Assembly (NCBI GenBank): GCA_017654855.1
Contig: CM030335.1
Coordinates: forward strand, 2,170,001-2,234,000
Reading direction: 5' to 3'
Length of the DNA: 64,000 nt
Origin: Podospora anserina
Taxonomy: Eukaryota
Shown: positions 7,875 to 62,000 of the stretch, in pieces
How the letters are laid out: the number at the start of each line of letters is the position of its first letter
Position numbering within the stretch: position 1 is the stretch's first letter
Made by a program: the position numbers and the translations under genes
The notes under the pieces: generated by a model
Databases searched by the model: none
What the model saw: only the letters and a program-made list of their open reading frames with translations
Told to the model about the DNA's origin: nothing

Positions 7875-9203
7875 ATGAGGGGCCCATCCGCCTTATCGCT
7901 ATCGCGGGCACTTACACGCCGCCCTCATCATCTTCATCATCATCATCATCGCGCGCTATTCACCACCCGCGGACAACGACAACAACAACTAGCCGCTCTC
8001 TTGACCTCTTCTCCTCTGAACACACCAAAAAGAACCTACTCAACCCATCCCCCAAACGCCAAACTCAACCTTCCCACCGATTACTCCACCACCCCCCTCC
8101 TCTGCCACACCACCACCACAGCCCTCACCAACCCCGAGCTCCCCCCCGAAACCCGCAACGGCACCACCAAGCGCATGAACCTCTTCCAAGCCGTCAACGA
8201 CGCCCTCGCCACCGCCCTCGCAGAAGACGAATCAGTCCTCATCTTTGGCGAGGACGTCGCCTTTGGGGGTGTCTTCCGCTGCACCGGCAAGCTCGCCGAG
8301 ACGTACGGCGCAGACCGCGTGTTCAACACCCCCTTGACAGAACAAGGAATCATGGGTTTCGCCATCGGGGCCGCGGCCGAGGGGATGAGGCCCGTGGCCG
8401 AGATTCAGTTTGCCGATTACGTCTACCCTGCTTTTGACCAGCTTGTCAACGAGGCGGCCAAGTACCGGTATCGCGACGGGGCGTGCGGGAGGAGCGCGGG
8501 GGGGTTGACGGTACGAATGCCTTGCGGAGGTGTGGGACATGGGGCGTTGTATCATTCCCAGAGTCCGGAAAGTTTGTTTACGCATATTCCTGGGTTGAGG
8601 GTGGTTATGCCGCGGTCGCCGTTGCAGGCAAAGGGGTTGTTGCTTGCGGCGATACGGAGCAATGATCCGGTTGTTTTTATGGAGCCAAAGATTTTGTACC
8701 GGGCGGCGGTGGAGCAGGTGCCTGCGGGGAGTTATGAGCTGCCGCTGTCGAAGGCGGAGGTGTTGAAGAAGGGGGATGATGTGACGGTTGTGAGTTATGG
8801 GCAGCCGTTGTACAAGTGCATGGCTGCGTTGGAGCAGGCGGAGAGGGATCTTGGGGTGGGGGTGGAGTTGATTGATTTGAGGACGATCTACCCTTGGGAT
8901 AAGGAGACGGTGCTCAAGAGCGTGAGGAAGACGGGACGGTGCGTGGTGGTGCACGAGGCGATGGTGAATGCGGGTGTGGGAGCCGAGGTGGCGGCGGTGA
9001 TTCAGGAGGATGCCGAGACGTTTGTGAGGTTGGAGGCGCCGGTTGTGAGGGTGGCTGGGTGGAGTATTCATACGCCGTTGTCGTACGAGCAGTTTAATGC
9101 TCCGGATGTTGCTAGTAAGTTGACTCTGACGAAGTTGAAAGAGGGAAGCTGACATTGTTACCTAGGGATATATGACAATATCAAGAAGGTGCTGGGGTTC
9201 TGA
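7875..9203 (+). CDS. Branched-chain alpha-keto acid dehydrogenase E1 beta subunit, mitochondrial (intron 9115-9165)
   Basis: Motifs GEDVAFGGVFRCT, FNTPLTEQGI, EIQFADY, GHGALYHSQSPE and ELIDLRTIYPWD. Arg-rich presequence. Confidence 0.95.
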
Positions 9204-9655
9204 GGTGGATATTGAGTCTGGAGGGTGAAGCATAGGGAGCAAGCGTGGCGTTGGGCGTGTGGCCATTGAAAGGCCGTGATGTGTATATATATCTGTGGTA
9301 GGTAGATCTAGAGGTCTTTGGTTAGTGACATACGACGACGAAGGAAAACCATGAAATAAAGTTTGGATATCAAAAGCATGGAGGGTCATCTCAAATGGAG
9401 CCTGCCACTTGTCTGGCGGCAGGCAACATCCCTGGTCTTGGCGGCCGGCGCATTTTCCACAGCGTGCCCCGCATCTTTGGGGTTTCATCAAACTGCCAGC
9501 CAGCAGTGCCAGCTTGCTTGCCCAGGGGCCCGCCGACTGACGACGACTTGCTTGCTTTCCATCATTTCGACTGCAGTAAAGCATTTGACGACGATTCTCG
9601 CCTGCAAGAGCTTCGTCTTTGGCCAAGCTTCGATTGGCGATTCACAGACACAGCC

Positions 9656-37304: not shown

Positions 37305-38773
37305 TGTTGAATTCCTCTCCTCCCGGCAATAATTCCGCGACTGTGAGATATTGAAAAGGTGTAAAGGTGTGATGTTGAATCACCGTCGTTACAGTCAGTC
37401 ACTCGTCAGGGATCACTACCCTTTACTAGTCGACCTCGGCAGTCGTCACCGCTGCTCGACGATGGAACCCTTTCGTCTGATGATGACAAACAAAACAACA
37501 ACAGCAAACAGCCAAGACCACTCAGTAATAAAAGTTTTTTTTTTGAAAAAAAAACTAAAAAAAATGAAATGATGCAACAGAGAGTTGTTTTGGCCTGCGC
37601 GGGGAGGGACCCAGCTTCATCTTAACCCTTCTTGGGACGAACTAGGACCCTTCGAGCAGTCACGATGGATATGATTAAATCGCCTTGCCCCCTCCACTTC
37701 CCCAGCAAACACACACAAGCAGATGCCGAATACCGGCATTGGGGGCATCCCATCCCTCCCGTCAGTCATCAACCTGTCTTGCAAAAATTTGTGTATGAAG
37801 TATCGTTTTTCCTTCCCTTTTGCTCAGGTTCCCAATAGTCATAATCCCCATCCCCACCACATCTGTCAGCACCCACCCTCCCCCACTCCCATCATCCCCC
37901 GAAACCTCCATCCCCAGTACCACAAACCCAAACAAAGAAAACCCTCCCTCATGGGAATAAATGATCATGGACATCATGGAAAAACACTCTCCCCCCCAGT
38001 AAAAAACTGCCGTCATCGACACCACCCCAGCCCAACAACCAACCAAACCAGCCCCCCCCCCCGGCCCCTAAAAGCGGAGCAAAAAGCGGAGGGTCACCCC
38101 GACCACCACCCGGCAGAGCTCTTCCTTTCCTTCCTTCGGCCCTGCCATGCCATGACCGCTACCCTTTGTCACAAGCCCAATGACAATGGGCACGGCACAC
38201 ACACCCCTTCGCGCTTTCGGCTCGTCGCCCCCGGGGTTAGGAAATGATAGCATAAGCCCAGGTAGTTTAGGTGCTTATTTCCGTCAAAGAACCATTTTCA
38301 CCCAAAGCCGGTGAAACCACACCTTCCCGGAGGAGTGTCGTCGGTCAAATGCCGAAAATCCCCCTAGCCACGCGACAGGACAAGAGAAAAATAAAATGTT
38401 TCAGATCTCACCTTTGCAGATCTTACCGCCCGGCATTTAAAACCTGACATGGGTCCGTCCGTCCCTCCGTTCGTGCATCGGCCGCCGTCAGCTCCCGGCC
38501 GGCCGGAGGGGCAGGGCAGGATATGTCGGCTCCGGTGAAACACGGTGCTTACCGGCCTTTTCGGCGCTCCTTTTGAGTAAACTGACCATGTCGCGAAAGA
38601 GAACAAGAAAAGGGGTTTGCAATATCCCGCATAGCCTTAGAAACAGTCTGTATGGGATTCCAGGCCTCTTTAAATGTTCTCAAGGCCTATCGAGTGTCCT
38701 CCAAAGCCCAGTAATTTACTCTTCAAAACCCATCAATCTATCCTACAATGCCCATCAACCAAAACCCCCATCC

Positions 38774-40220
38774 CTAAAGCCGCCAGACACCACCCCAATT
38801 CTCCCCCTCAAAAACCATCCTCCCCTGCTTCCACACCTCCCTCAACTTCAACACCATCCCCCCACCCCCCTCCCCTGTAACCCTCTCCAAAACAACAATA
38901 TCCCCATCCGTCCCATCCTCCAAAGTCCCAATGCTCCCCTCCAAACCCAACAACCTCGCCGGCCGCTCCGTCACCGCCATCAACGCCGAAACAATATGCT
39001 CGTTCTCCCCCTCATCCCCTTCCAAACCAACACTCGTCGTATCAATATACCCCAAAAAATTATTCACACACTCCAACAACGTCACCGCACTCCCCGCCAA
39101 CACCATCCTCTCTCTCTTTTCCTCATCCATCTTCGGAGCCATCACCCTCCCCCTAGACTTGACAACACTCGACTTCTCGGTCCCATTCCGCCACGGATAC
39201 GTCCCGTCCCCCAACCCCAGCACATGCATCGCATCCGTCACCAAGATCAGCCCCTCCGGATGCACCGAGTGTGCCAGCATAACCGCTGACTTGTGGTTGT
39301 GAACCCCATCAGCAATAATGCCATAACTGGGAGCTTCTTCATTCCCCGCCGGGATAATGATGTTGGCGATACTAAGCTCCGACTCGCGGTGACCAAAAGG
39401 GGGCATGGCATTGAAGAAGTGTGTCACCATTCTCGCGCCAGCAGCGAGTGCCTCACGGGCTTTCTCGTACGAGGCTGCCGTGTGTCCCAACGAGACGACG
39501 ATGCCGTCGCCGGTGAGTGTCGAGATGATTTCCGGTCCTTCCTGGAGGAGGACTTCAGGGGCTAGGGTAACCATCTTGACAGAGTGGGGAGGGGCTCGGG
39601 AGAGGTTATAGACCGTGTCGAGGTCTTGGTAGGATTGGGCGGTGCGGAGGACGGAGCGGTCGTGGACGCCGCATTTGCATGGGTTTAGAAAGGGGCCTTC
39701 GAGGTGGGCTCCTAGGACTGAGGCGCCGCGGTCTGGGGATGGTCGGGGTGTGGGGGTGAGGAATGGGATAGCCTAGGCTTGTCAGACGGAGTGAGATTGG
39801 TAACGAGGGGGATCGTAAATGGTTTCGCACCTTATGATAGGCCTCGCTGTGCTGGCTCGTGAGGGTGGGCAGGTAAGATGTCACTCCTGTCTGGACAAGC
39901 CATTTGTTGACTTTGGTAAGTTGCTTAGGATAGTCGGAGATGTCGTCGGGGATGGTTGAGAAGTTGAATCCAATAGCGCCGTTTATTTGGCAGTCGATGA
40001 AGCCTGGGGCTATGATGCATCCTTGGAGGTCACGGACAGCATCCGGGGTTCGTTTGGAAGAGCCAATGGTGCCATTCTTGGTGTTTATCCAGAGATCTCC
40101 CTTGACGAGCTTGCCGTCTCGGAGTAGGCGGCAGTTGACGAACTGGATGACCTCAGGCTCTCCATGATCCTGCGCTCTCGAGGATGGAGTACTCGAGGAC
40201 GACGGGCGCAGGGCTGACAT
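38774..40220 (-). CDS. dac1: N-acetylglucosamine-6-phosphate deacetylase (intron 39773-39830)
   Basis: PGFIDCQINGA, TGVTSYLPT, GAHLEGPF, VTLAPE, SLGHT, THFFNAM, IIADGVH, LVTDAM and LAGS. Confidence 0.95.
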
Positions 40221-40962: not shown

Positions 40963-43900
40963 ATGGTCAAGTTGGACGGTGACTTAGACCCACTATGGCA
41001 AGATCTCGACTGGTAACCGTTTCTCCTTTGCTTTTTGCCATGCTGTTTGTTGTCGTCGTTCTGAGTTCCTCATTCGCTGACTGTCTTGTCTCTCTCTCTC
41101 TCAGGGCCATAGGGCAGATGGTGATTATGGGATGGGATGGCACCGAAGTCACTCCGCAGATTCGTCATCTCATCGAGGAACACCATCTCGGCTCCATCCT
41201 TCTCACGGCAAAGAATCTCAAATGTGTTTTTCGGTCCGAGAGACGTGCGCGGGTGAATGGATGCTAACTCGTCAATGCAGCTGCCCACCAGACGGCCAAG
41301 CTCGTGCAGGAGCTTCAGACGATTGCTCACCAAGCCGGCCATCTTCAACCGCTCTTGATTGCCTTGGACCAGGAAAATGGCGGCGTCAACAGCCTGTACG
41401 ATGAGGACTACATTTGCCAGTTTCCCAGCGCCATGGGCCAAGCTGCCGCTGGTAATGCTGATCTCGCATACAAAGTCGCCAAAGCTACAGCCACCGAGGT
41501 CTCGGCCGTGGGAGTCAATCTGATTCTCGGACCCGTGCTCGACGTTCTGACAAACGCTCGTTACCAGCCGCTCGGTGTCCGCGCTGTCGGGGACGATCCA
41601 CAAGAGGTCTCACAATATGGCATCGCGGCTATGAACGGCTACAAGGATGCTGGGGTGGCCACTTGTGGAAAACACTTTCCTTCTTATGGGAATCTCGACT
41701 TTCTCGGGTCCAGCTTGGATGTTCCCATCATCACCCAAACCTTGGAGGAGTTGTCCCTGAGCGCCCTCGTGCCTTTTCGGAATGCTATTGCTACTGGAAA
41801 GTTGGATGCCATGTTCGTTGGCGGCTGTGGCATCACAAACCCGTCCATGAATGTGAACCACGCCTGCCTCTCCGATCAGGTGGTTGATGACCTTCTCAGA
41901 AACGAACTTGGTTTCACGGGTGTTGCCATATCGGAATGCTTGGAGATGGAAGCTCTTCGAAGTGAAATCGGAGTCAAGACTGGCACGGTCATGGCGGTAG
42001 AAGCCGGCTGTGACTTGGTTCTGCTGTGTCGGGCCTACGACGTGCAGCTCGAAGCCGTAGCTGGCCTCAAGCTTGGTGTGGAAAACGAGCTGCTCACCAA
42101 GGAGCGTATTTACACTTCTCTCCGCCGTGTTCTCAAGATGAAGAACGCGTGCACGTCCTGGGCTAAAGCGCTGAACCCGCCAGGAATTTCTCTGTTGTCC
42201 AAGATTCACCCGAGTCATCTCAACCTCTCAATCAACGCATATGATGACTCCATCACAGTTATTAGGGATAACGAAAAGCTTCTGCCCTTGAATGAGTCGA
42301 TGCACCAGGAGGAAGAGTTGCTACTCCTCACCCCGTTGGTCAAGCCTTTGCCAGCCTCGTCTTTGACCAAAAATATCCTCGAGGCGAAGAACAAGTCCGA
42401 TAGCGCGCCGTCGGAACACGACAAATGGATACACCGGGATCGGGGCGTCATAATGAGTGGCGAGGGGGTGTTTCGGGAGCTTGGGAGGTCACTTGCCCGC
42501 GCTCGACGTGGCAAGCTGCTACATACCTCTTACACTGCAAATGGTGTTAGGCCGGGTGAGTGCTTTGGGCAGCTGTGATGGGAGAGAATACAATGACTAA
42601 CATGGGGTAGTACATGAAAACTTGATACATCGGGCGTCCTGTATTGTTATTGTGACGGCCGATGCCAATCGAAACCTGTACCAGGCCGGGTTCACCAAGC
42701 ATGTCTCAATGATGTGCTCAATGTTGAGGGCAAGTGGCCAGAAGAAATCCCTGGTCGTGGTGGCCGTCAGCTCGCCCTATGATTTCGCCATGGACAAGTC
42801 GATTGGGACCTATATCTGCACCTTTGACTTTACGGAAATGGCCATGGCAGCTCTTGTGCGCGCTCTCTGCGGAAGCTCGAGAGCACGCGGGACGCTGCCG
42901 GGGACTCTGAGAAAAAGCAGAAAGGCCGTGAAGTCGAGGCAGCACTGGCTTGTCGAGCCCTATGACAGGGACCGCGACTCCAACGGTCTCAACGATCTTT
43001 TGAGCGCTCTTGCTCGTGCTGCTGCCCCGAACCATCGGTTTCTGACCACAACAACGGCACACTCGTTTGAGATTTTCAACCCAAACATTGAGGAGTCGCA
43101 CTTTGTGGTTCGCAACAGCAGCACGCAGGCGCTGTACGGATTCTGCGCGACGTATCACACCCAAGGGACCGGCATAATCGGAGCGATCTTCGTGGACCCT
43201 ACCAAGCGCAACGTTGCCATTGGGCGTTCTCTCCATCGCCGGGCCCTTCGAGCGTTGATTCAGAAGAGGGGCACAAAGAAGATACAGCTGGGAATATGTT
43301 TCCCAGGTGTGTTCCTGGGCATCCCGACAGACGACGGCGGGCTCAAGACGTGGTTTTCCAACAGCGGTTGGGACTTGCAGTTTCCGCGACGGTTGGCCAA
43401 CATGGTGATTGCTGACTTGAGCAGCTGGAGCGCACCAGAGGGTCTGCTGCAGAGCATCCAACGGGCGAACATGAGCTTTGATCTTATTCATGGGTTGGAG
43501 AACGCCGAGACGGTGCTTGCGCATGTATCCGGGAATGCGAACCCGGAGGTGTTTGAGCTGTACCGTTTGGCGTTGCAGGAGACAAAGTCGTGTGGGGTTG
43601 TTAGGGCCAAGTGCCAGAGGGGAGGGCTGGTGGGGACGGTGGTTATTTGTAGTCCTGGGAGTCAGGTTGCGGGTTATGTGCCGGCTTTGCAGGGGGGGGA
43701 GGAGGTGTTGGTTGGGGGGATCATTGCGCCGGTTGTGGCGCCTGGGAATGGGGATTTGTTGGTGATTCAGGGGCTCGCGTTGATGGGGTTGAGACAGAAC
43801 AAGGCGCACAAGTCTGGGAGGAGCGTGTTGAGCTGGGTGGGGGAGGAAGGGATGGAGGGGTTGGGGGCGATGGGGTGGGAGGTGCTGGAGGGGTGGGAGG

Positions 43901-43990
43901 AGTTTACTAATTCGGTTGAGAATGTGAGTTTTCTTGAGGGGTGAGTTGAGATGTGTTGCTGATGTTGAATAGTGGCAGGATCTTGCTTAG
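40963..43990 (+). CDS. ngs1: GH3 beta-N-acetylglucosaminidase-like domain fused to GNAT domains, Ngs1/NAG3-type GlcNAc sensor (introns 41013-41104, 41224-41280, 42556-42610, 43924-43972)
   Basis: GH3 motifs LIALDQENGGV, LGPVLDV, KHFPSYG, SECLEM and AGCDLVL. C-terminal GNAT-like segment GAIFVDPTKRNVAIGRSL. Divergent from dac1. Confidence 0.88.
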
Positions 43991-47042: not shown

Positions 47043-49031
47043 ATGGCCAGCTACAATGGCATGCCGGCCATGTCCTCCGGCGCCACGGGTCCTGACGCCC
47101 TGGGACATCAAGGCCAGCAATCGCTCGGCATCGACGGCTTTGATCCGCACAGTATGACATTTGACGACCCGTTGCTGTGAGTATCACAATCGCGGGAGCT
47201 CAACTGAGAACTAATCATCTCATCTTCTTACAGCCACAACCTCCCATTTACCCCGACAGCCGCATACGATTTTGACACCCTTAGCACAACATTTGAAGAC
47301 CCGTTCTCCTACCCAGCCAGACCGTTCGGTAACGATGTCGCCAACACCGCTCTCATGGGAAATTTGGGAGGGCTAGGCGTCGACCCAGAAAGCTGCTACA
47401 ATGGCAACCACGGTGGCGCCGAGGGGTCATCCTCCCCACAAGAACTCGACAACAAACTCCTCGGCTTCGGCGCGGTCGTCCCAGGCAAAGCCACCCTGAT
47501 CGACCCCTTGGGACAGTTTATCGAACCTATGATGAGCGCAGAGTTATACGGCATGTTCTTTGTCGCCGAGGACGTCTTTGGGGCAGATAACGGCGGCGAT
47601 AACCGACGTCCGATGGAGTTGACTTGCTACAGGAGGAATCTATGGCAGTGTTCTGGGCAGATTACTCTCCCGAGACAAGTGGCGCAATATGCTGTGGCCG
47701 ATGGGCAGCAACGGATGCCAGTGGTGGAATTAGCGGCGTCTATCACGGCGCTCGAGAGTATTGAAGGGAAACAAACGGAGATCATTTCCATCCCGTGGAA
47801 GAGTAACAATCCTGCTCTAGGAGGAGTGACTGAGGAATCGACAAAGTCCGCAGGGGCGCCAGCGATAACTGTGTTGGACTTGGGGTCGGGCCAGGAGATT
47901 GATGGGACGAACAGAGTGACGGTGGGGGTGTCGTGGAAGAGACTGCAGTTTAAGCATGCCACCGCGAACAATGGGCGGAGGAAGGGACTCCAGCAGCATT
48001 ACGTGGTGCAGATAAATCTGCTGGTTAAGGGGAAGGGTGGAGAGTATGTCAAGGTTGCCGAAGTTCAGTCGGGACCGGTCATTGTGCGAGGCAGAAGTCC
48101 CAGGAATTTTGACAGTAGGAAAGACGTGCCTCTGTCAGGAGACAAGAGGCTACTGGAGAGGAAAAGCATCGAGGGGTTGAGTTCGGGCTCTACGACTACG
48201 AAGCAACAGCAGCAACATATGGGAACTCCACAGAGCCAGCCCCTGAGTCAAGATTTTGGGCAAGGTTTTCTTCATGGATATCAGGGGATGGGAAGTTTAC
48301 CGGTATGCCTCCAAGTCTGATCAAGTTCTTTGTTTCACACGCTGACAATCACGCAGTCCACGACAGATTGGTCAACTCCTCGACCGTTCCTCTCACCAAA
48401 CCCCCAGCAACAGCACGCCAGTAAGAAGCTAGCTTTGTCCTCTCCAAGTCTCAACCGGCCGCCAGTACCGCCCTGGGTGCCAATAAATGCCACCTTAGCA
48501 ACTCCATTGCCAACCGGCAAACAATTACAACACACTAGCAACCTTTTGAAGCCAACCCGTGGACTACATTCTACTTCCCAATCCAACAACCTCCCTATCA
48601 ACCTCTCCCTCTCAGAAGACGAGCGCAGCCCACCAAACTTGAATCGATCTAATTCCTCGGGTGGCGAATCGTCTCAAAGCCCACAGCAGCACTTTTCCAT
48701 GTCGTCATCGTCAAAAGCGGGGAATAGCAGGCCGGGGTTGGGACACAAGAGCCAGAGGACTGAGAGTGGGGGTGCGCAGCAGCTTAACAGTCCGCAGGAT
48801 CAGACGGAGGTGGATATGTTGTATGAGTATTTTCCATTGAGTGTGGATGACTGGTAAGTCTGTGCCTGGAGAGATGGGAGTAGAGGGGAAAGAAAGTGCT
48901 GACGAAATCATAGGATGCCGCCGGTGGATGCGATTTATCGACCGCATGTGGTTCATCATACTATTGTGCCGCCTGAGGTGAAGGCGCAGCAGCTGAGGAG
49001 TAAGGGGAAGAGGTATTTTGCTGCTGACTGA
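47043..49031 (+). CDS. ron1: Ndt80/PhoG-family transcription factor, RON1-like regulator of GlcNAc catabolism (introns 47177-47233, 48303-48356, 48854-48913)
   Basis: Ndt80 DBD motifs LTCYRRNLWQ, WKRLQFKHATANNGRRKGLQQHYVV and SGPVIVRGRSPRNF. Conserved tail YEYFPLSVDDWMPPVDAIYRPHVVHH. Located within the GlcNAc cluster. Confidence 0.9.
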
Positions 49032-49333
49032 GGTCAGGAAGAGGGGGGCTATGATGGGATTTAGGTTGCATGTTGAAGAGGGTGGAGGATGTGCAGTTAT
49101 ATATACCAGGGACAGTTACTGCGAAGGAGATGGGACGATGTGAAGTATATGGGAGAATGGTGAATGATGGCACGGCCTGGGATGGATGTCTGTGCAAGTT
49201 TTTTGGTGTTTGTGGTGCGGGATTTTGGCTGGGCGTTTCAGGGGGGGATGATGTATTATTGTACGACAACATCACACTCAGGGGACGGGGGGCGTTAATC
49301 ATCAGCTTTTTGTATTGTGGCCTTTTTGGCTTT

Positions 49334-50991
49334 TCAGGATCTCGTGCTTTGCTTGTCCAGACAAGCCAACGCCACTGCTGCACCCAAAACTGAACTTTGT
49401 TTTGCGGGGACGAGCTTAAAGGTGGTGGGTGTGTTGAGGGTTAGTTGGTCGAGGTAGGATTGCAAGTGGGAGAGGTAGTGGGGGTAGTGCTCTATCACAG
49501 AGCCGGTATAGGCTATTGTTGTTGTCTTCTGGGGTTGTTTTTGAGGGGAAGAAGCTTCGAGGTTTATTTCGTGAAGTGCGTGGAGGGAGGCGGCGAGGAT
49601 CGAGGCTGAGCGTTGGGTTATGAGGGAGGCGATTGAGGTGAGGAGGGAGAGGTCGGTTTGGGAGGGGGGGTGGGGGGAAGGGTGGAGGGTTTGGAAGTGG
49701 AGGGGGTCACTGGGGGGGTGTTAGTGAACACGATGCATCAGAGAGGGACAGCGGACGGGGAGCACCTTTCGAGAAGAGATAGTGTCTTTGCATCGAGGGT
49801 GTATTCCCTCGCTAAAGAATCCGGGACAACCCCGCCGAATGCCCCCGTTTCGTGGATTGCATCGACCAAAATCAACCTGGCCACCTCGCCGAGGTAGAAC
49901 CCGCTGACGAGATGCTCCAGAGGCTGAAAGTCTGGTCTTGGGTGGGAGGCTTTGAGGGTCTTGTCCCATTTTGTTGAGGGGAGGGAGGGGCCGCCGAACA
50001 TGCCGAGTTCTGTGTTTACTACTACGTGAGTGGCGAGGGTTTGGGGACGGGGGGGGAGTTTGGAGGGGCTGATGGTGGTGACGGGGAGGTAGGCGGCGAT
50101 GTTGACGCCTGTACCGAGGATTAGACCGAAGGTTGTGGTTGAGGGGTGGGAGTAAGCTGCGGAGAGGAGCGTGGCGGAGGAGTCGTTTACTATGGCTGAA
50201 AGGGAGACGTGTAGGTTGTGGTGGAGGCAAGAGGTTTGGAGTATGGAGGAGAGGTTTTGGTTCAAGAGGCCGTCGGCGGCGTGGAAGGATTTTCCCATGG
50301 GGCGGAGGAGGTAGGTTTGGGGGGTGGGTTGTTTGCGTGGATGTTAGCATTGGGTATGTTTGAGAGGATGGATAGACATTATACGAGGAGGAATGGCATA
50401 CTCAATTGGAAAGCTCCACGACAGCCCAAGCAATAACGGGTCATCAGCACAGTGACCCTGCCTGCTGTCTTTTGCCACAGTTTGGTAGATTTTCTCAGCC
50501 ATCCAGTCAAAAAAGGCTCTGCCCTTCAATGCTCTGATATCATTGTCGATATTGAAGGTGTCAATGCTGACGATGACGCTCTCTGGACCTCCTGAAGAAC
50601 CTCTGCCCTTGAGGTCCACCAGAGCAACTCGCAAGGTTGAGCCCCCAACGTCAACAGCCAGATATTGACCCGACTCATCTCCCGTGGGAAGCTCGGTATG
50701 GTACGATGGAAGCATGCAAGCCGGATTTGAGAGGAGGCCCTCACGAAACTCAAGCTTCAGCTTTTGAGACAGAGCTCTACGCTTGTTTGGTTGAGTAGGA
50801 TCCAAAAGCAAACTCTCGGCTTTTGCGAGGAAATCGCTGATAGAGGTTGAGCCATCCTTGCTGGGTGGTTCACGTAGGGTTGGTGAGGACTCAGTCGAGG
50901 TTGTCCAGAAAGCTAACAAAGCTTGGAGAAATGATCGGCCTCGGAAAAGCGATTTGATGACGGCCAGGAGTAAGTCACGCAGAGATGCCAT
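49334..50991 (-). CDS. hxk3: Hexokinase-family GlcNAc kinase, HXK3-like; exons 50991-50402, 50332-49766, 49709-49334; intron 1 acceptor is non-canonical (CAA), so possibly non-functional
   Basis: MLPSY, YLAVDVGGSTLRVALV, WSFPIE, IVNDSSATLL, LILGTGVN, NTELGMFG, QPLEHLVSGFYLGE, GSVIEHYP and SSVLGAAVA. Confidence 0.85.
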
Positions 50992-52262
50992 GGCGAAAAT
51001 GAACGAATGCAAGAAGGAGGTCCCTGTTGGGGACCTGTCTCTATTACTTATGGGACGATGATGAAGGAGCAGACATCCAGATTCCAATACGAGGTCCCAT
51101 ATGAGGTGGAATAAGGCTGGCGATCAGAGCTACCTTCCTGGACTGGCATGGCTGTTAGCTCGCTACTTTTGACTCGTGCACAACATTACTCGATACCGCG
51201 CAGCAACGGGCTCGTGGGAGTTGTTCTTGGTGTATCGCTCTCCAAGAAACCACCACTACGCAAAGTCTGGAGATTGTTTAATAGAAACGAATAATGTACT
51301 TCGGCGAAAAATGAGGTTCCTGTTAGCCACCTGTTGTCTCGACCTAACAGGCATCCAACTCCAGCGGTTGCGTCGGTAGATTGCGCGCCAGCAAAACTGG
51401 CGGAAAGACCTTTGAGCCTCCAACGACCAATCTATTCAAGACGAGAAGCATGGCCGGTAGTGGGTAAGGAATGGCAAAGTCGTGGGGGACCAATGACGGA
51501 GGGATCTTGGAGATTGACTGGCACGGCTGCTTGGAGCTGAATATTGCAGAACATTTCCTCGTCTCGTTGTCGGTTTAGGGAGGTGGGTGGGAAAGTAACG
51601 TTCCATGCCTTCCTTGGCTGGGGGAGGCTGTCAGCGGAGAGTAACCCTGGAGGGAGCCGCAACTGAAGTCTGTCGAGACGATTGGGTTTCGTAGATTTGA
51701 CTTCAATCATTCGCCAAAGCCCTGTCCAACGGGGGCCATCACATCACCAGCAGGCCGTTCGTGGCCGTTGTAACCTGGACAGAGGAACACACAGTGTGGG
51801 CGGTATGGCTGGGCACCGTGGGAATCTCGTGATAGCACGGGCCACATGAACTCTAACCTCCCTCCCGTCCACAAACAGCAAGCACAACCCGGGGACAGGT
51901 TGAAGAGGGAAGGCGTTGGGGTGTCATACTTGCCATGGAGGGAGTAGTGGATGACAGGCGATCGGGGCACAGGTCCATCGCAACCTGCAACTTGTGCCAC
52001 CACTGCTCCTCAAGTACCCGGTCCTATGATAAACGTTTCATCCACTGCCATCATTACCAATTACCACTACCGTTGACAGTTCATCACAGGTATCACATTG
52101 CTTGAGTGACTGAGCCCTCCGAATCCCGGACATACTCGGCGTGGAATATCACAAGTGTTGTTCTGGGCCATCAGTCATCAGCCTCCGCAATCCTAAGAAC
52201 TCTCTGCCCTCCAACCTACCCGCAACGCCTTGCTGTGCTCTGAAGCTCTAATAGAGGCCAAA

Positions 52263-53488
52263 ATGAGACTCATCATCAGAGACAACGGAGAGGCTGCCAG
52301 CCGATACGCCGCCAACTATATTGTCGAGAGAATCAACATCTTCCGCCCTGGCCCAACAAATCCCTTTGTACTAGGTCTTCCTACCGGATCCAGTCCTGAG
52401 ATCGTATACCGAATTCTTGTCGAGAAGCATCGTGCCGGCAAGGTCTCGTTTCAAAATGTTGTAACCTTCAACATGGTAAGCCGACCTTTCTCTCTATACC
52501 GGACCGCGTGGCTGATTACCACCACCTCCAGGACGAGTACATTGGACTCCCACGAGACCATCCCGAGAGCTACCGCTCGTTTATGCACAAACACTTCTTC
52601 TCGCACATCGATATCAATCCGGACAACATCAACATGCTTGATGGCAACGCCTCCGACCTAGAGGCCCATTGTTCCGACTACGAAGCCAAGATCAAGGCTC
52701 TGGGAGGAATCAACCTCTTCCTGGCGGGCATTGGTGAGGATGGCCACATCGCCTTCAACGAGCCCGGCTCGAGCTTGGCCTCTCGCACTCGAGTCAAGAC
52801 ACTTACCTACGACACCATCCTCGCCAACAGCCGCTTCTTTGGTAATGACGTGGGAAAGGTACCCAAGATGGCCTTGACTGTTGGAGTTCAGACTATTCTC
52901 GACTCCCGCGAAGTGGTTGCCCTCGTCATCGGTGCCCGCAAGGCCATTGCTCTCCAACACTGCATCGAGCAAGGGGTGAATCACATGTGGACCTTGTCTG
53001 CCTTGCAGTTGCATCCATATCCTCTGATTGTGTGCGACGAGGACGCCACACTGGAGCTGCAGGTAAAGACGGTCAAGTACTTCAAGAGTATTGAGCAGGT
53101 TGCTCGATCCAATGGCCTTGAGCAATGTCTACCTCTCAAAATCAGCACCAGTCATGTGCCCACGCTTCATGATACACCACCGTCCCCGGCGCAGACGCCT
53201 GTTCGGTTCAGGATGCGAGTCCCCACGAAAGCGGAATTATTTGGCGAGTCGGCGTACACGGTCGAGTCCGGTTGCCCTTCTCCCAGATTAGACTCCATGT
53301 CGGCTCGAATCAAGAAAGACGAACGATGCCCTTCACCGCGCTTTGATGCCATGTCCAGTCGGCTCAAGAGTGACAAGGCTGATCACTCCGACCATGATCG
53401 GGCGCCTGATTCCGACAGCCTATGGCGTTTTATTTTGCCGCTACAACTGCAAGACCACAAAGATGGCCACAGCGGCACAACAGACTAA
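52263..53488 (+). CDS. dam1: Glucosamine-6-phosphate deaminase (intron 52476-52531)
   Basis: [37 protein letters not shown] and [13 protein letters not shown]. Confidence 0.97.
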
Positions 53489-54190
53489 AACGAATAGTAA
53501 CTGGGTCAGTCACGGGGAGTTGGGCATCTGGGGTCGAAGTTGCAACCGCCGCAGCCGTGGGTTCTGGTTTCTGAGGTGACTTTTAAGTTTTGTCTACTGC
53601 CCTAAAAATGCACTTCACATAGCTCTTTTTCCGAGTATTGAGGCTCAAATGCATGAGTGTGGATGGAGGCCTGGTAGTCGGCGGGCCGCGCCGCATATCA
53701 TCGCTTTCTTTGGTGTGCCCCTGAAAGTGAAGATTCGGCCCCCACGACCCCCAACTTTGCACTCGGCCGCCTTGCTGTGGTCTGAGGGCACAATTGGCAG
53801 CCCACCTTAACGATTGGAAAGATGGCCGTCGTCGGAGAGCCATATCAAACATCAAGCATTGCCAGCTGATTTGCACTGTGGCTTGCCCACTGCCTCACCA
53901 GGCACCACCACAGCTGGCCTCAGTCTTGCCCATAGTCGGTAAGTATAAGCCATGGTCACATGCAGGCAACTTTTGTGGCCGTTTGTGGTGATTATGCGAA
54001 CAAAAGGGTATTGTGATGGGGCGTGGTCTAGGTGGTGGGTGGGTGTGGTGTGGTGGTCATGGACTTTTTGTACTCTAACTACCCAGCCGGCTCAATAACA
54101 CCTTTCTCAGCAGGTTTTCTCGATCTCTCATTTTGATGAAAAACCAAATGGTTTTTTTTGGGTGTTTTTGTTGGTTGTTTTTTTGGAACA

Positions 54191-55258: not shown

Positions 55259-56010
55259 TTCTTCAGGTACCTTAATGTCATGGTTAGGTAGTGAGGAGTG
55301 AATAGGAAGGGATCTTTAGGTTTGTATTACTATCTTGGAAGCATCTCTTGGTGAGAGGATGGTGAGCCAAACTATTCCATGTATCATTGCTTGAATGCGT
55401 GATAAAGCGCATCGACTTGAACGGATGACAGTGGCAATCCCCACCAAAAAACTGGCCGAAATGCCATTGACGCCAATGCTTGATGCAGGAACAACACCTC
55501 AGCGTTCGGATGGTTTGTCTGGGGGAAATGTGAGCTGGTTTCAGGGGTCATCCCATGTGTTATCTCCGTCCATCCCATCTCCGTATCCCATCTCTCCATC
55601 CCGTCTCTGAGGACTGGCTCTCACTCCCATCTCTCAGCCCCATCTCTCCAACGCCCATTCTCCTCGGCCTATTCACTCTTCACCTAGACAGAGCCCTCAC
55701 AAAATCATCACAAATCACATCACCATCAGTGCACACGCAAAAAGCTCTCTCTAAAGATCATGAGTTTTCATTCCAATCCATCGATCCTTTTCCATAACTA
55801 AACACAGCGAGCACCCCCCATCCATCATTCCACAGGATAGGTATTGTCCCTCGCGCAAAAAGGCTACATAAACAACAAAAATATACGTATCCGAAAAGAA
55901 TAAAAAATATCTCCAAAATCAAGTACAAAAAAGTCTCAGCGGCGGGTGTTGTTATCCCCCCTCCTGTCCGAACAAAAAAAAAGAAAATTACCCCTTCATC
56001 ATCCACTCAG

Positions 56011-59000
56011 CTAATACCTCAACACAACCTTGCTCCCCTTACTCTCCCCCCTCCCATGCCCCGCCCTCCAACTCTCCTCCTCGCTCACAACCTCCCTCCT
56101 CTCCGGAATCGGCACCAAACTAACACTCGTCCTCCTCCTCTCCCTCCCAACCTTCATCTCCACAACCGGCTTCGCAACACAAACCTTGTGCAACCAGTCA
56201 ACCTCACACTTCTTCTCAACCACTGGCACAGCCGCCCACAACCCCTGCCCCTCAAACCTCTCAAAAGGATCCTCCCCCCTCTTCACAGCCCTAATCTGCC
56301 CCAAAATCTCCACTTTCCTCGCCTTCTTCTGAATCGTCTTCCTTCCCTTTTGCCTCCTAGCAGCGCTCTCAGCGTCTTCAACAGCGCCGTCAACAGTAGG
56401 GGTGTTAACACCCTTAGCCAACCCCCACATCTGCTGCGACGGGATCACAGCCACAGCAGCAGGGGGCGCCCAGAGGGTGGCAGCCGGCTTGGTAGGGACA
56501 ACAGCAGGGACCTTCGACCTGCTCGACTTGTGAGATTTGGAAACAGAAGGCTTGGAGCGGGAGTGAGTCCTAGCAGGGGTGGACACGGGGGTTTGCTCAG
56601 GGGTGGTTTGGCGAGAAATAACGAGGGATTCGCGGATGCGATGGCTCAACCGGCGCTGAATGTCCTGCACCGTCTCAAACGTTGTCGTCGCCATGGTGGG
56701 CTCCTCTGTTGGGATGGGGGGAGGTGGTGGGAAGGGGGCTGAGATGGAGGTGTTGCGGCGGCGGTATTCAGCCTGGGCAAACTGCTGGGCGAATAACCTC
56801 TCTTGCTCCAAAGCTTCAATCTGGGCTTGGATCGTGTCCCTTCTGCTGCGGGTAGATGAGGAGGCCGAACGCTCACGCTTGGCCTTGGAAGCCTGACGAC
56901 GGAGCTTCTTGGCGGCGTAGGAAGAGATAGCTGGGTGGACAGACTCAAGAGGGCAGGTGATGGCCAGAGAGCCAAAGAAGACGGGGTGAACGTTGGCTAC
57001 GTCGTAGGTATAACCAGTGGCAGCGGGGTGGAACCACTCGGAGCGAGTGATCAAACTCTTGGCCGCGAAGACGGGGTGGCGGACCGAGGAGTCAAACTTG
57101 GCAGGATAAGAAAGGGCGAGGGCCTCTTCAAGAGCGGCGTCCCACTCGGCGGCGGTGGCAGCGATGCGAGTAACCTTGGGGTAGCTAGCGGCAACAGCCT
57201 CGTTCAAAGCGGCGCGCCAATCGGCAAGGCTGAACTCAGGGCGGGTGGTCTTCTTGGGCTTGGCCTGTCCCTGAATCCAGTTGCGTTCAGTCTTGGTGAC
57301 AGCCTCGAGGGTCCAAAGAGAAGTCGACTTGAGCTGCTCAAGTGGCTTGCGCTCAACAGGACGAGGGCTACGGCTCATGGAACGAGCAGCGGGCTCCTCA
57401 GTGGTGGTGCGGTAGACGGTACGGCTGGGGTCGACGGTAAAGAGACCTTGAGGCGGAGAAGATCTGCAAACGACAGGCGGGCTCCACACACCAGTAACAA
57501 CCGACACTGGCCTGGACTGAATCCAGTTGCGCTCAGTCTTGACGACAGCCTCAACAGTCCAAAGAGAGGTCGAGGCAAGCTTGTCGAGGGGCTTGTGGTC
57601 AGCCGGGCGAGGGCTTCTGCTCATGTACTGAGCAGCAGGTTCCTCAGTGGTGGTCCGGAAGACAGTGCGGCTGGGGTCAACCACAAACAGACCTCCCCGC
57701 GAGGAAGATCTATCAGTGACAGGTGGGGTCCACAAGCCAGCAGAGACTGTCTTGTTCTGAATCCAGTTGCGCTCGGTCTTGCGAGCCTCGGTCTGAGCAG
57801 TCCAGAGGGAAGTCGATACCAAACTGTCGAGAGGCTTGCGCTCAGCCGGACGGGGGCTGCGGCTCATGTACTGAGCAGCAGGCTCCTCGGTGGTAGTGCG
57901 ATATACGGTGCGGTTCGAGTCAACGGCGAACAACCCACCCCGCGAAGAATCTTTATCCAATGTGACGGGTGGGCTCCACAGACCTGCAGAGACCTGCTTG
58001 ACAGCGGTCTCGGCCTGGGTGGATTTGATGGGGTGGCGAGGAAACTGGGGTTGTTTGGGTGCCGAGGCCGGGGCAGCCGGTACTTGCGACTCGGCGACGG
58101 GGGCGGGCGGAGCTGGGCGGGGGTTGGAAGGCAGGCCAATCCTGGCAACAGGCTTGGACACGGGCTTCTTCTGGACTTGGGGCTCGGGCTCATAGACGGC
58201 ATCGTTGAGGATCGTAAGGGCATCGCTCTCGAGGGTGGCAGAATCACGCTTGCGGCTAACAACAAGCTCGCTGGGCTCAGCAAGGCCAATGACAATGGAT
58301 TGCTCGCGGGAAGACTGGTCCTCATCATCGGACTCGAGCTCTTCAACATAGTCACCCAAAACAGAGTCCTCAGAGGGAACCAAGCTGCTTCTAGAGGGGA
58401 CGTTGTCAACCTTGAGTAGGCTGGCAATCTCCCAGAGGGTGGTCTCATCGAAGCCATCGTCGCTACCATCTTCATCAGAGTTCATGCCGTCAACGACGTC
58501 ATCGTCGTCATCGTAATCATCAAAGAACGAAGAAGAGTATTCGTTGAGCTCAGTCTGCTGGGAACGGACAGGTGCACCAGAGGCCATGGTACCAGGCATG
58601 GCCATCAAGACAGGAGGGCGAGCCTGGACGGAGGCCGTGTCGGACTTTTCTCCCCAGGGGAACTGGAAGATACCGAGAGTGCCCCTCTTGTTAGGCAAGG
58701 GCTCGGGGTTCTCGATGATATCAGGGAGAAGAGTGACGCGCTTGTTGCGACGAGGCGGGCGCTGTGTCACCGGACGAGGAGCCTTCTGGGGCTGAGGCGC
58801 CGCAACCTGTGAGACACGCTTGACTGGCTCAGCTGGGGGAGCAGCTGAGGCCCAGACGGGCTTCCAGAGTCCGGTGGTGGACCGGCTGGTGTTGGTGTAA
58901 GGCTTGCGCCAGAGGTGGGTGCTGTGAATCTGGAGGGGCTCCGGCTCCTTTCTGGCCATGGGGCGGACAGAAAGGCTGGGGAGGACAACCTCGGTCTTGG

Positions 59001-62000
59001 CAACCTTGATGGGAGCAGTCCACAAAAGACCAGCAGGGGCGGAAGACCTGCTTGGCGGGGTCCAGAGCCACTCGGCCTTGGGCTGCTCCGGAGAGGGCTC
59101 GGGAGTCTGCTCGAGGCACTTCGCCGGGAGCTCTGGGACAGGGGGAACCTCTTCCTCTTCCGGAAGATTGATGGAGGATGCGTCAGACTCCGGGGGAGTT
59201 GGGCTCGCAAGCTGAGCTCTGGTGAGCTGCAAGAAGTTGACGCTGCTCTCGCGGAGGAGACGGGCGTCCATGTACTCCATCTGCGCCTCAGTCAAGCGCT
59301 TCTGCCACTTGCTCATCTGAGCGCTGCCAGAGTTGCGGACCGAAGGTTGCTCCTCAATCTTGGACATGCTGCTGTGCTTGGACAGGCGAGCAATGCGGGA
59401 AGCCCTGCGGTCAGATCCGATGCTCACTCTGGTGTTGGCGGTCTCGGGGACAATGTTGGCAACGCTGGCGACAGAGTCATGCTTGACGGCGGGCGAGCTG
59501 GTCTGGACGCTCGAGAGAGAGTCACGACCGATGTCGTGCTTCATCTCCTTCCAGTGATCAACCTGCATGCCCATTTCCTTTTCCATCATTTCGAGCAGGG
59601 CCAAACGCTGAGAAGGCGTGTCAGCATTGACTTCAGGCTCCTCCAGCTTCTTGAGCTGGGCCTGAATCTGTTGCAGAGCGTGTTCTGGCGACTCCAGAGG
59701 GGAAGGCTCAGCGTGAACGATGACGGCCTTCTTGTTGGGGGTGCGAAGCGAAAGGGGAGTAGGGGGTGTCTTTCTGCATCCCTTCTTGCTCAAGCAGTCC
59801 TTGGAAAACGCAGGGCACTCGTCACCAACACGCCTGTGCCACTGGCTCTGAGGTGCAGGCTTGGGCGCAGAGACAGGCTCGGGGACTGGTTCAGGCTCAG
59901 GCTCCTCGGGGGCCGGAATGGTTACTTCATCGTCCACGAGCCAGGATTTCCGCATACCGAACTTGGAAAAGGTAGACGTGTCGAGCATGAAAGGCACGTC
60001 ATCGCTGTCGCGAGACTCGACAACCCTGGTCTCCTCCTTGGGCTCTTCAGCAACCTGCTTAGCAGGCATCCGAACAGCGGCAGGGAGACCCTGAGCCGGC
60101 ATGATGGCCATGGGCATGGCGTACTCGGGAGAATTCATGGAGCTCCAGTTTGTGGCTGTTCCTAAATCGTCCACAGTAGTCTCGGTCCAAGCTGAGGCTC
60201 GAATTGCAGGAATGACTGGCGAAGACTTGCGCTTGTCTTCTTGCTTGCCAGCCTCAAAGGCACTAATCCATGCCTTGCTTGTTTCGTCCGTGGCTTGGAC
60301 ATTTGACTCTTTCCGCGGAATCTCGTCCACTTCGAGGATGCTATCAGTCCGTACAGATGTCTTGGTGGTGCGGTTGGACACCGTCTGATTGTCGGCTTCA
60401 CTTGTAGAGGAAGTAGTATCCAGGTAGGACATGGGTATTCTGGGGAGCTCGGGCACTGAGGAGGATCTGCGTCTAACGGACTTTGACCTTGGTGGAGCGG
60501 GGAAGAGGAGAGTCATCTTCTCGTCAAAGGTCATGCTCTTGGTGTTGTTGGGTTGTGGCCTCGCAGGCAATCCCACGCTTCTGGGAGCAGGTGGGAGCGG
60601 GGGGAGCTGAGTAGGGCTGCCAGAAGTCGCATCCAAAATGGACTTCCTTCCCAAAAGAGAGCTGGCAGACTTGCTTCTGCGATGGCTGGGAGAAGCAATG
60701 TTATCCGGCTTGCGTGGGATAGGTCGCGGACGGTTGACGACTGAAGCAACCCTGGCCGGAGCCTTGGAAGTTGGGGCTGGCTTCGAGGGCAGAGTGTTCG
60801 CCCTGCTCATGATATTTCCAACAGCAACCGGGTCGTGATACTCGATGTTGTTGATGAACATGATGGTCTTGTGCTGCGACGAAGGACCCATCTCCTTGCC
60901 AACCTGGATGCCGCGAGCTCTTGGGTTGGTTGGGAGACCAATCGTGGGTCTTCTCTGGAGCGGCGTCTTGGCTGCTTCCTGAGGAGGGGTGTCGGGCGAG
61001 GGAGGCAGCTGTCGCGACGGGCGGATGCCAGGTCTTTGGATCGGCTGAGGGACGTTGGCTTGCAGCAACACTGTTACTGGACGAACGTCATTTTGGGATG
61101 CCCTCGCAGGTTGAGGGGCAGGAGTCAGCTTCTCAGGGGTCCAGGGCCGTTGCTCCTCTGGCTCTGGCTGGCGTGGTGATCTACGACGAGTCTCATCACT
61201 GGCAGGAGAAAGCTGGGTCGAGGTCGTGGAGGCAGAGCTGTCGGCTTGCAGACCTCCAGGGAAGGCACTCTGACGGGATGAAACTGAAGCCACCTCCTTT
61301 CTCTTCATGCTGGCAGCCCGCTTGACGCCCTCCTCGGGAGTCAAATGCATCGACTGCATGACGGACCGGTGCGGCACCGATAGGCTTCCCTCCTCAATCC
61401 TGGTCCGTCTCCTCTCCTTATCCGCCACGATCGCCGACTGAAGATCAATAACCGTGATCTTGTTTAATGGGTTACCGTCCTCGTTAGACTGGAGGACTGG
61501 CTTGCCAATCACTGGCCTTCCCCCTGTGGAAGATGTCCTCTTTCCAAAATCGCCCCACATGCCCCTCTTCTGAGAAGCCGATCTCTCCAACTGGCGGACA
61601 TATTCGGAGCTCACGGGTGGCGGCATCGCTGGTACTCCTTGGGTAGCGACGCTCATGGCGAAGGGGAACCCAGCACTGGTCTCATCCTTGGTATTTGGCA
61701 CCTCTCTAGGGTTGACGAAGCTCCTCGATGAGCGGATGTTGGCCTCCTTCAAATCCTCAAACCGGCTTGGGGGATATTCCGAGTCAGCGGTCGAAATATC
61801 ACGGCTGATGTTGATGCGTCTCGGTGAAGGGGCCTCGGGAAGCCCAGAGTCGGATTTCCTAGACGAGATCAAAGTCATGGCGCCAGCCGTAATGAAAACT
61901 AGAGGTTGTCAGTTGAAGGAACTAGCAGGGCAGTGTACAACTTACCGATCAGCACCAACAGTCCGCCGGCAGGGAGAGCTGTCCTAGCGGCAGATGGGAT

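Follow-up and report, generated by a model that had tools for sequence, protein, structure and literature searches.

The kinase gene at positions 49334 to 50991 of the window (the whole stretch of 64,000 nucleotides of Podospora anserina DNA analysed here) raises the question of what becomes of an intron that has lost its terminal AG, since the first intron of this gene ends in CAA. Is the final A real, is the intron nevertheless removed, and is the gene still able to yield a complete enzyme? The gene is carried on the minus strand by a member of the Podospora anserina species complex, and its three exons form a 510-aa open frame:

50402..50991, minus strand: exon 1, from the ATG at 50991-50989 to ...CCA ATT GA; Pfam Hexokinase_1, E=1.5e-33
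50333..50401, minus strand: intron 1, 69 nt, phase 2, GT..AA; precisely skipped in RNA contigs of runs X15, X16 and X20
49766..50332, minus strand: exon 2, starting A CAA CCC ACC (E-Q-P-T); Pfam Hexokinase_1 and Hexokinase_2
49710..49765, minus strand: intron 2, 56 nt, canonical GT..CAG with branch site ACTAAC; spliced in the X20 contig
49334..49709, minus strand: exon 3, TGA stop included; Pfam Hexokinase_2, E=1.2e-20

The stretch is present in twenty public sequencing runs; of the words sampled from it, all 194 occur in each of 14 DNA-like runs, which come from 4 studies. Four runs were examined at the level of contigs, namely X1 (DNA) and X15, X16 and X20 (RNA); the RNA status of X15-X20 is a guessed label, none of them being on record as RNA, and the material consists of assembled contigs and not of raw reads.

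Both hexokinase Pfam domains of the kinase (PF00349 and PF03727) lie above the gathering score, with 116.7 bits for Hexokinase_1 and 106.1 and 74.3 bits for Hexokinase_2, and the best matches to it among solved structures are human hexokinases 1 and 2 (E ~1e-57). The read-through translation (P0001) matched Sordariales hexokinase-family proteins, the top match being a 510-aa protein of Podospora pseudoanserina that NCBI names N-acetylglucosamine kinase 1, the label also borne by the sister-species orthologs. The 510-aa proteins of five named species of the P. anserina complex share 98-99% identity with the exons of the window and all read SFPIE/(Q/E)PAPQ at the junction of exons 1 and 2; these are protein models and are silent on whether the intron ends in AG or AA. 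The NCBIfam library, which was built for prokaryotes, returned no family for the kinase. Shortly after the junction (50296-50282, minus strand), the window, the Podospora complex, Cercophora samala and Triangularia verruculosa have MGKSF and other relatives have MGKGF, a Gly-to-Ser change inside a conserved hexokinase motif.

The kinase is located as expected of a GlcNAc kinase of the hxk3/Nag5 type, with homologs of ron1, nag3, dam1 and dac1 nearby. These neighbours are intact as ORF pieces, and Pfam searches of the ORFs gave the expected domains:

47208-48320, plus strand: NDT80_PhoG, ron1-like regulator
41268-42578, plus strand: Glyco_hydro_3, nag3 homolog
52400-53488, plus strand: Glucosamine_iso, glucosamine-6-phosphate isomerase, dam1-like deaminase
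38774-39772, minus strand: Amidohydro_1, dac1-like

The GlcNAc catabolic cluster of Trichoderma reesei has the same gene make-up, and its hxk3 is similar to Candida albicans Nag5/Hxk1 (PMC4950302). As there, the hexokinase-family gene of Podospora stands beside NDT80-like (ron1), GH3 (nag3), deaminase (dam1) and amidohydrolase (dac1-like) genes; unlike that of T. reesei hxk3, the specificity of the Podospora kinase is a prediction from sequence and context. On the basis of the NCBI name and the gene context, we infer that GlcNAc is its probable substrate. The passages of the T. reesei paper that describe the cluster (PMC4950302) mention neither Podospora nor intron 1.

Some further observations concern the surroundings of the gene. 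At 41268-43944 (plus strand), the GH3 domain precedes a GNAT match (E = 6.5e-4) that is weak and under the Pfam cut-off. The single RNA contig of X20, 5103 nt long, extends from ~500 nt past 49300, through the kinase, to ~2.9 kb past 51100 (about 48800-54000) and reaches the region of the neighbouring deaminase, which points to transcripts that overlap or read through within the cluster, although one contig over two genes is no proof of a single transcript. An uninterrupted ORF of 1965 aa at 56011-61908 (minus strand) is rich in S, P, A and R, displays a coding-like third-position bias (A 0.10) and matched no Pfam or NCBIfam family at E <= 0.001; it probably encodes a large disordered protein. 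Two long ORFs on the opposite strand (56860-58419 and 58849-60165) gave no family in the NCBIfam search.

Intron 1 and its surroundings contain the following elements:

50396..50401, minus strand: 5' splice site GTATGC, donor GA/GTATGC, with the intron G at 50401
50343..50348, minus strand: branch site GCTAAC, putative branch A at 50344, 11 nt before the last intron base
50344..50346, minus strand: in-frame TAA inside the branch site, ending the unspliced translation after 215 aa (...HTQC-stop)
50333..50335, minus strand: 3' end of the intron, CAA and not YAG (C50335 A50334 A50333)
50196..50197, minus strand: first AG past the branch site (TTTCAG/CC), 148 nt beyond the branch A and in the wrong frame

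The gene strand thus reads ...TGG AGC TTT CCA ATT GA/GTATGCC...AATGCTAACATCCACGCAA/A CAA CCC ACC..., and the changed base is 50333, an A on the gene strand and a T on the plus strand. From 50402/50401 to 50197/50196 the gene strand is free of AG, and this gap of 205 nt is the longest of its kind on the minus strand within the 64-kb window; among the RNA contigs examined, no joint to the AG at 50197/50196 was found. Exons 1 and 2 share one frame and are separated only by the TAA in the branch site. Joining 50402 to 50332 gives ...WSFPIE QPTPQTYLLRP MGKSF... and the 510-aa open frame, while the 23 residues encoded by intron 1 are an insertion present only in the window when it is compared with nine homologs in a 10-sequence alignment. 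An earlier sequence-only reading of this DNA had described the donor, the branch site, the CAA end, the restored frame, the out-of-frame AG at ~50196 and the HTQC stop, all of them correctly.

With regard to intron type, GTATGC fits the GTRNGY-like pattern of U2-type donors and GCTAAC matches the CTRAY branch-site motif, at 11 nt from the intron end. The AG end of U2-type introns is missing, AA being found at 50334-50333 in the window, in the X1 contig and in the unspliced RNA contigs. Introns of the U12 type have an RTATCCTT donor and a TCCTTAAC-like branch site; intron 1 has GTATGCCA at the donor and CCCAATGCTAAC in the branch region, and neither fits. It was also observed that CGUGGA at the end of exon 1 (50420-50415) can pair with UCCACG (50341-50336) just upstream of CAA; such a pairing would bring both ligation partners together and may be due to chance. 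The RNA fold of 50420-50290 was not retained as evidence, as it had a z of -1.29 and 23 of 200 shuffles were as good.

One deviating base at so critical a site typically raises the suspicion of an assembly or sequencing error, in which case the true base would restore CAG. The X1 contig (15,947 nt) spans 49300-51100 with 0 other letters and 0 gaps, and X1 may be the source of the window. X15 and X16 belong to two other studies, and each has a 128-nt unspliced contig (50304-50431), again with 0 other letters. Further copies of the base could be traced at the protein level through an ORF on the opposite strand:

50215..50433, plus strand: antisense ORF, used as a probe with no claimed function; codon 40 (TTT) corresponds to 50332-50334, its middle base being 50333

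This is the only frame over 50333 that is informative; in two others a change at that base would be synonymous, as Val GTT/GTC in a plus-strand frame and as Gln CAA/CAG in the second frame of the minus strand. The protein of the antisense ORF that is identical to that of the window, with the Phe codon (P0131), was on 12 public contigs. The X1 DNA contig, the unspliced RNA contigs from X15 and X16 and 12 further contigs all carry this base, so that the AA is not an assembly error, an option that the sequence-only reading had entertained and that can be excluded for practical purposes.

The RNA contigs show that the intron is removed. A joint between 50332 and 50402, skipping 69 nt (TT..AC on the plus strand, which is GT..AA on the gene strand), was found in X15, X16 and X20, that is, in three runs from three studies, and in 0 contigs of X1. 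X15 and X16 have one 59-nt contig each with this joint, and the 5103-nt contig of X20 skips both introns, from 49709 to 49766 (56 nt, CT..AC) and from 50332 to 50402 (69 nt). The junction predicted from the sequence, 50402 to 50332, is therefore present in RNA, and the suggestion that a rare GT-AA intron is used there is borne out. The GT..AA removal is precise save for one ambiguous letter at the joint, so that an AG..CA cut fits the RNA equally well; GT..AA is favoured because of the orthologous introns described below. Two intronless ORFs of Logan contigs complete the picture: P0127, from a transcript contig, is 100% identical to the exons of the window, exon 1 included, and has the junction PIE/QPTPQ, and P0128 matches a Podospora comata protein and has the junction PIE/QP.

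Unspliced and spliced forms coexist in two of the runs. The mean word depths of unspliced and junction contigs were 21 and 10.8 in X15 and 11.2 and 5 in X16, contig depth being a poor measure of level, and X20 displayed only the spliced form, with a depth of 0 in the intron bin. The segment 49665-49765 has no cover in X15 and X16, which are uninformative on intron 2 there; in X15, a loose end of 8 letters at 49766, read by eye, fits the start of exon 3. These data hint that the removal of intron 1 is inefficient or conditional.

The ancestral state of the site was examined in a scan of metagenome contigs that yielded 42 loci with relatives at 39-66% identity. In 32 of these 42 metagenomic fungal relatives (26 distinct sequences), an intron occupies the same position and phase, and it ends in AG in 32 of 32 (CAG in 18, TAG in 12 and AAG in 2). 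All 26 distinct sequences start with GT, three of them with the GTATGC hexamer, and the distance from the CTRAY branch A to the 3' end is 9-17 nt, as compared with 11 in the window. As for the remaining loci, seven are intronless at this position, the script left two undecided (of which L032 reads TAG by eye) and one has no motif. Closer to the window, a sister lineage represented by one contig of 7062 nt encodes Ser (P0130) where the window encodes Phe at codon 40 of the antisense ORF; a genomic ORF covering exon 2 and intron 2 (P0129), whose contig is also 7062 nt long, has residues absent from the five named species. A Ser codon that is one change away from TTT is TCT, which has C on the plus strand, hence G on the gene strand and CAG at the intron end. 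The sister lineage must then carry G at the equivalent of 50333, as deduced from the amino acid and not from a read base. Because the 32 orthologous introns end in AG and the sister lineage has the Ser codon, the AA is best read as derived, by a recent G>A transition. The alignment of orthologs thus agrees with the sequence-only reading, which had postulated a single G>A change: AG stands at the intron end in 32 of the 32 relatives where it was located, and the sister contig has Ser (TCN) against TTT in the window.

Taken at face value, the shared frame of exons 1 and 2, with one TAA between them, would also be compatible with no intron at all, the 69 nt being coding and the stop read through or edited as in PUK1 of Fusarium, and introns mis-annotated in a way that hides edited stop codons have indeed been described (PMC4817773). 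However, the RNA contigs of three runs omit precisely these 69 nt, their 23 residues are absent from nine of nine aligned homologs, and the position is occupied by a GT..AG intron in 32 relatives against seven that are intronless. The ambiguous letter at the joint likewise leaves room for a cut shifted by one base (AG..CA), which has no orthologous support, and we regard either of these explanations as scarcely credible. As to a crippling lesion, by which the G>A change would mostly inactivate the gene, leaving spliced RNA as a minor by-product in a lineage that is losing its GlcNAc kinase, it would account for the unspliced contigs in two of the three RNA runs, where they are deeper than the junction contigs (21 against 10.8 and 11.2 against 5), and for the fact that the translation of unspliced RNA ends after 215 aa. 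Yet the only contig of X20 is fully spliced with no depth in the intron bin, the 510-aa frame is intact and keeps both Pfam domains, only three residues differ from the consensus of the five sister species, the allele is on 12 contigs with 14 DNA-like runs containing all 194 sampled words, and the neighbouring genes of the cluster have intact ORFs with domains as expected. We consider this explanation improbable. The sequence-only reading had also proposed that the change breaks the pathway; the gene is not dead, because spliced in-frame RNA exists in three runs, and of that proposal only a cost of the change survives, as something that the unspliced RNA suggests.

Editing of AA to AI by ADAR2 is an example of how a 3' splice site can be created, and the intron of Podospora resembles such systems in that a genomic AA at the intron end works as an acceptor. 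If A50333 were converted into inosine in the pre-mRNA, the A-I acceptor would be read as AG and the intron would be GT-AA only in appearance. Animals edit with ADARs and these fungi do so without them (PMC4817773). Sordariomycetes do possess a system of A-to-I mRNA editing (PMC13433876; PMC4817773), a Podospora preprint reports differentially expressed ADAT genes (10.1101/2024.12.09.627484), and editing of GT-AA to GT-AG has been cited as possible (PMC7072748); moreover, mRNA cannot disprove editing, since splicing would remove the edited base together with the intron. On the other hand, the unspliced contigs of X15 and X16 read only A at 50333, even if rare variants are lost in contigs, and the context of the site is not that of fungal editing. 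Edited sites of Fusarium graminearum have U at -1 in 85.7% and A in 8.0% of cases and prefer hairpin loops, and fungal A-to-I editing is specific to the sexual stage and occurs chiefly in coding regions (PMC4817773). In the window, the context is AAA, with A at -1, and the base, while unpaired, is not in a hairpin loop in the minimum-energy fold (z = -1.29). In contrast to AA-to-AI editing, then, no editing was seen in the contigs of the Podospora intron and the fungal editing context is not present, and we judge dependence on editing to be very unlikely.

In our opinion, the explanation that has by far the best chance of being correct is that of a GT-AA intron of U2 type in which a recent G>A change altered the last base, CAA is used at the ancestral 3' site and the full kinase is made. 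Intron 1 would be an old, position-conserved U2-type intron in which, in this lineage, an A has recently replaced the terminal G. Because the donor GTATGC and the branch site GCTAAC are intact, the first splicing step would proceed normally. At the second step, there is no AG for 148 nt, and ligation takes place at the ancestral spot, 11 nt past the putative branch A, with CAA as the 3' site; the outcome is an in-frame mRNA, which would give a complete 510-aa kinase. The last G of an intron normally pairs with its first G. Exon ligation is probably slower, because an A cannot make this last-G/first-G contact, and unspliced RNA encoding only a 215-aa stub would build up; in short, splicing efficiency is probably reduced. 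We infer that the 3' site is chosen by its distance from the branch point.

Work in Saccharomyces cerevisiae provides a parallel. Yeast spliceosomes can use branch-proximal non-YAG 3' sites, strongly so without Prp18, and at a short distance between branch and 3' site they can do without the second-step factors Prp18 and Slu7 (PMC10711555). As with the yeast sites described there, an AG-less 3' site close to the branch point, 11 nt in Podospora, can be ligated. The yeast sites presented in that work are, however, low-level alternatives enhanced in the mutant, whereas the Podospora site is the sole productive one and belongs to a wild-type fungus; in addition, the motifs that the yeast study names in this connection are BG and HAU, and CAA is not among them (PMC10711555).

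A more speculative reading, which we regard as rather unlikely, is that the AA end constitutes a slow, condition-dependent ligation step that sets the amount of GlcNAc kinase, and that the loss of the G and the removal of every competing AG over 205 nt come from a strand-asymmetric substitution pressure depleting G, of which patches of this genome bear the mark. The condition-dependent part of this reading derives from the two RNA runs with both forms, the third with the spliced form only, and the 215-aa stub encoded by unspliced RNA.

The composition of the window is in itself peculiar. Applying a threshold of absolute skew > 0.5 in 150-nt windows, we found strong G/C skew in 41 patches 150-870 nt long (for example, 49384-49820, 49918-50426, 8700-9349, 38651-39267 and 55535-56401), 18 of them G-rich and 23 C-rich on the plus strand. 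In the kinase gene, a patch that is C-rich and G-poor on the gene strand begins at intron 1, which has 6 G in 69 nt. Third codon positions in that patch have about 0.7 C and 0.02-0.06 G; over the patches of exons 2 and 3 the values are about 0.5-0.7 C and 0.02-0.10 G, and in exon 1 the mix is near-even. Compared with its relatives, the protein encoded in the skewed patch has drifted to P, T, S, Q and L (EQPTPQTYLLRPMGKSF versus EQTSSKGGKLCGMGKGF). The three residues specific to the window with respect to the five sister species are D>N, A>T and Y>H which, judging from the window codons, would require the gene-strand changes G>A, G>A and T>C. The splice-site change points the same way. The four events are possibly related through a substitution bias, for which they are too few to be proof.

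Introns of the GT-AA class have been found in other fungi. The curated annotation of Ganoderma lingzhi lists 22 among about 92,000 introns (PMC11590231, Table 1), and these resemble intron 1 of the kinase in that they begin with GT, end in AA and have RNA support for their removal. The tabulated data for Ganoderma, a basidiomycete, are a genome-wide count, whereas in Podospora there is a single named gene with its ancestral state and with RNA that is partly unspliced. PMC7072748, in its remarks on this class, brings in GT-AA only as editable to GT-AG, and the text of the Podospora re-annotation (PMC9801653) on splice sites and hexokinase does not mention intron 1. Within the collection of papers searched, none describes this intron, and the supplementary splice tables of PMC9801653 and PMC7072748 might list it.

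GT-AA introns are thus a known rare class, of which intron 1 is a new and well-supported example, and because the class was already known the finding does not open a new kind of biology. Its interest lies in that it is a natural and recent change from AG to AA at a 3' splice site that is still processed at the same position by the normal spliceosome, and it offers a clean in vivo case of how the second splicing step chooses a site in the absence of any AG within reach. For annotation it serves as a warning, as gene finders that insist on AG would break a conserved gene of the GlcNAc cluster or call it a pseudogene.
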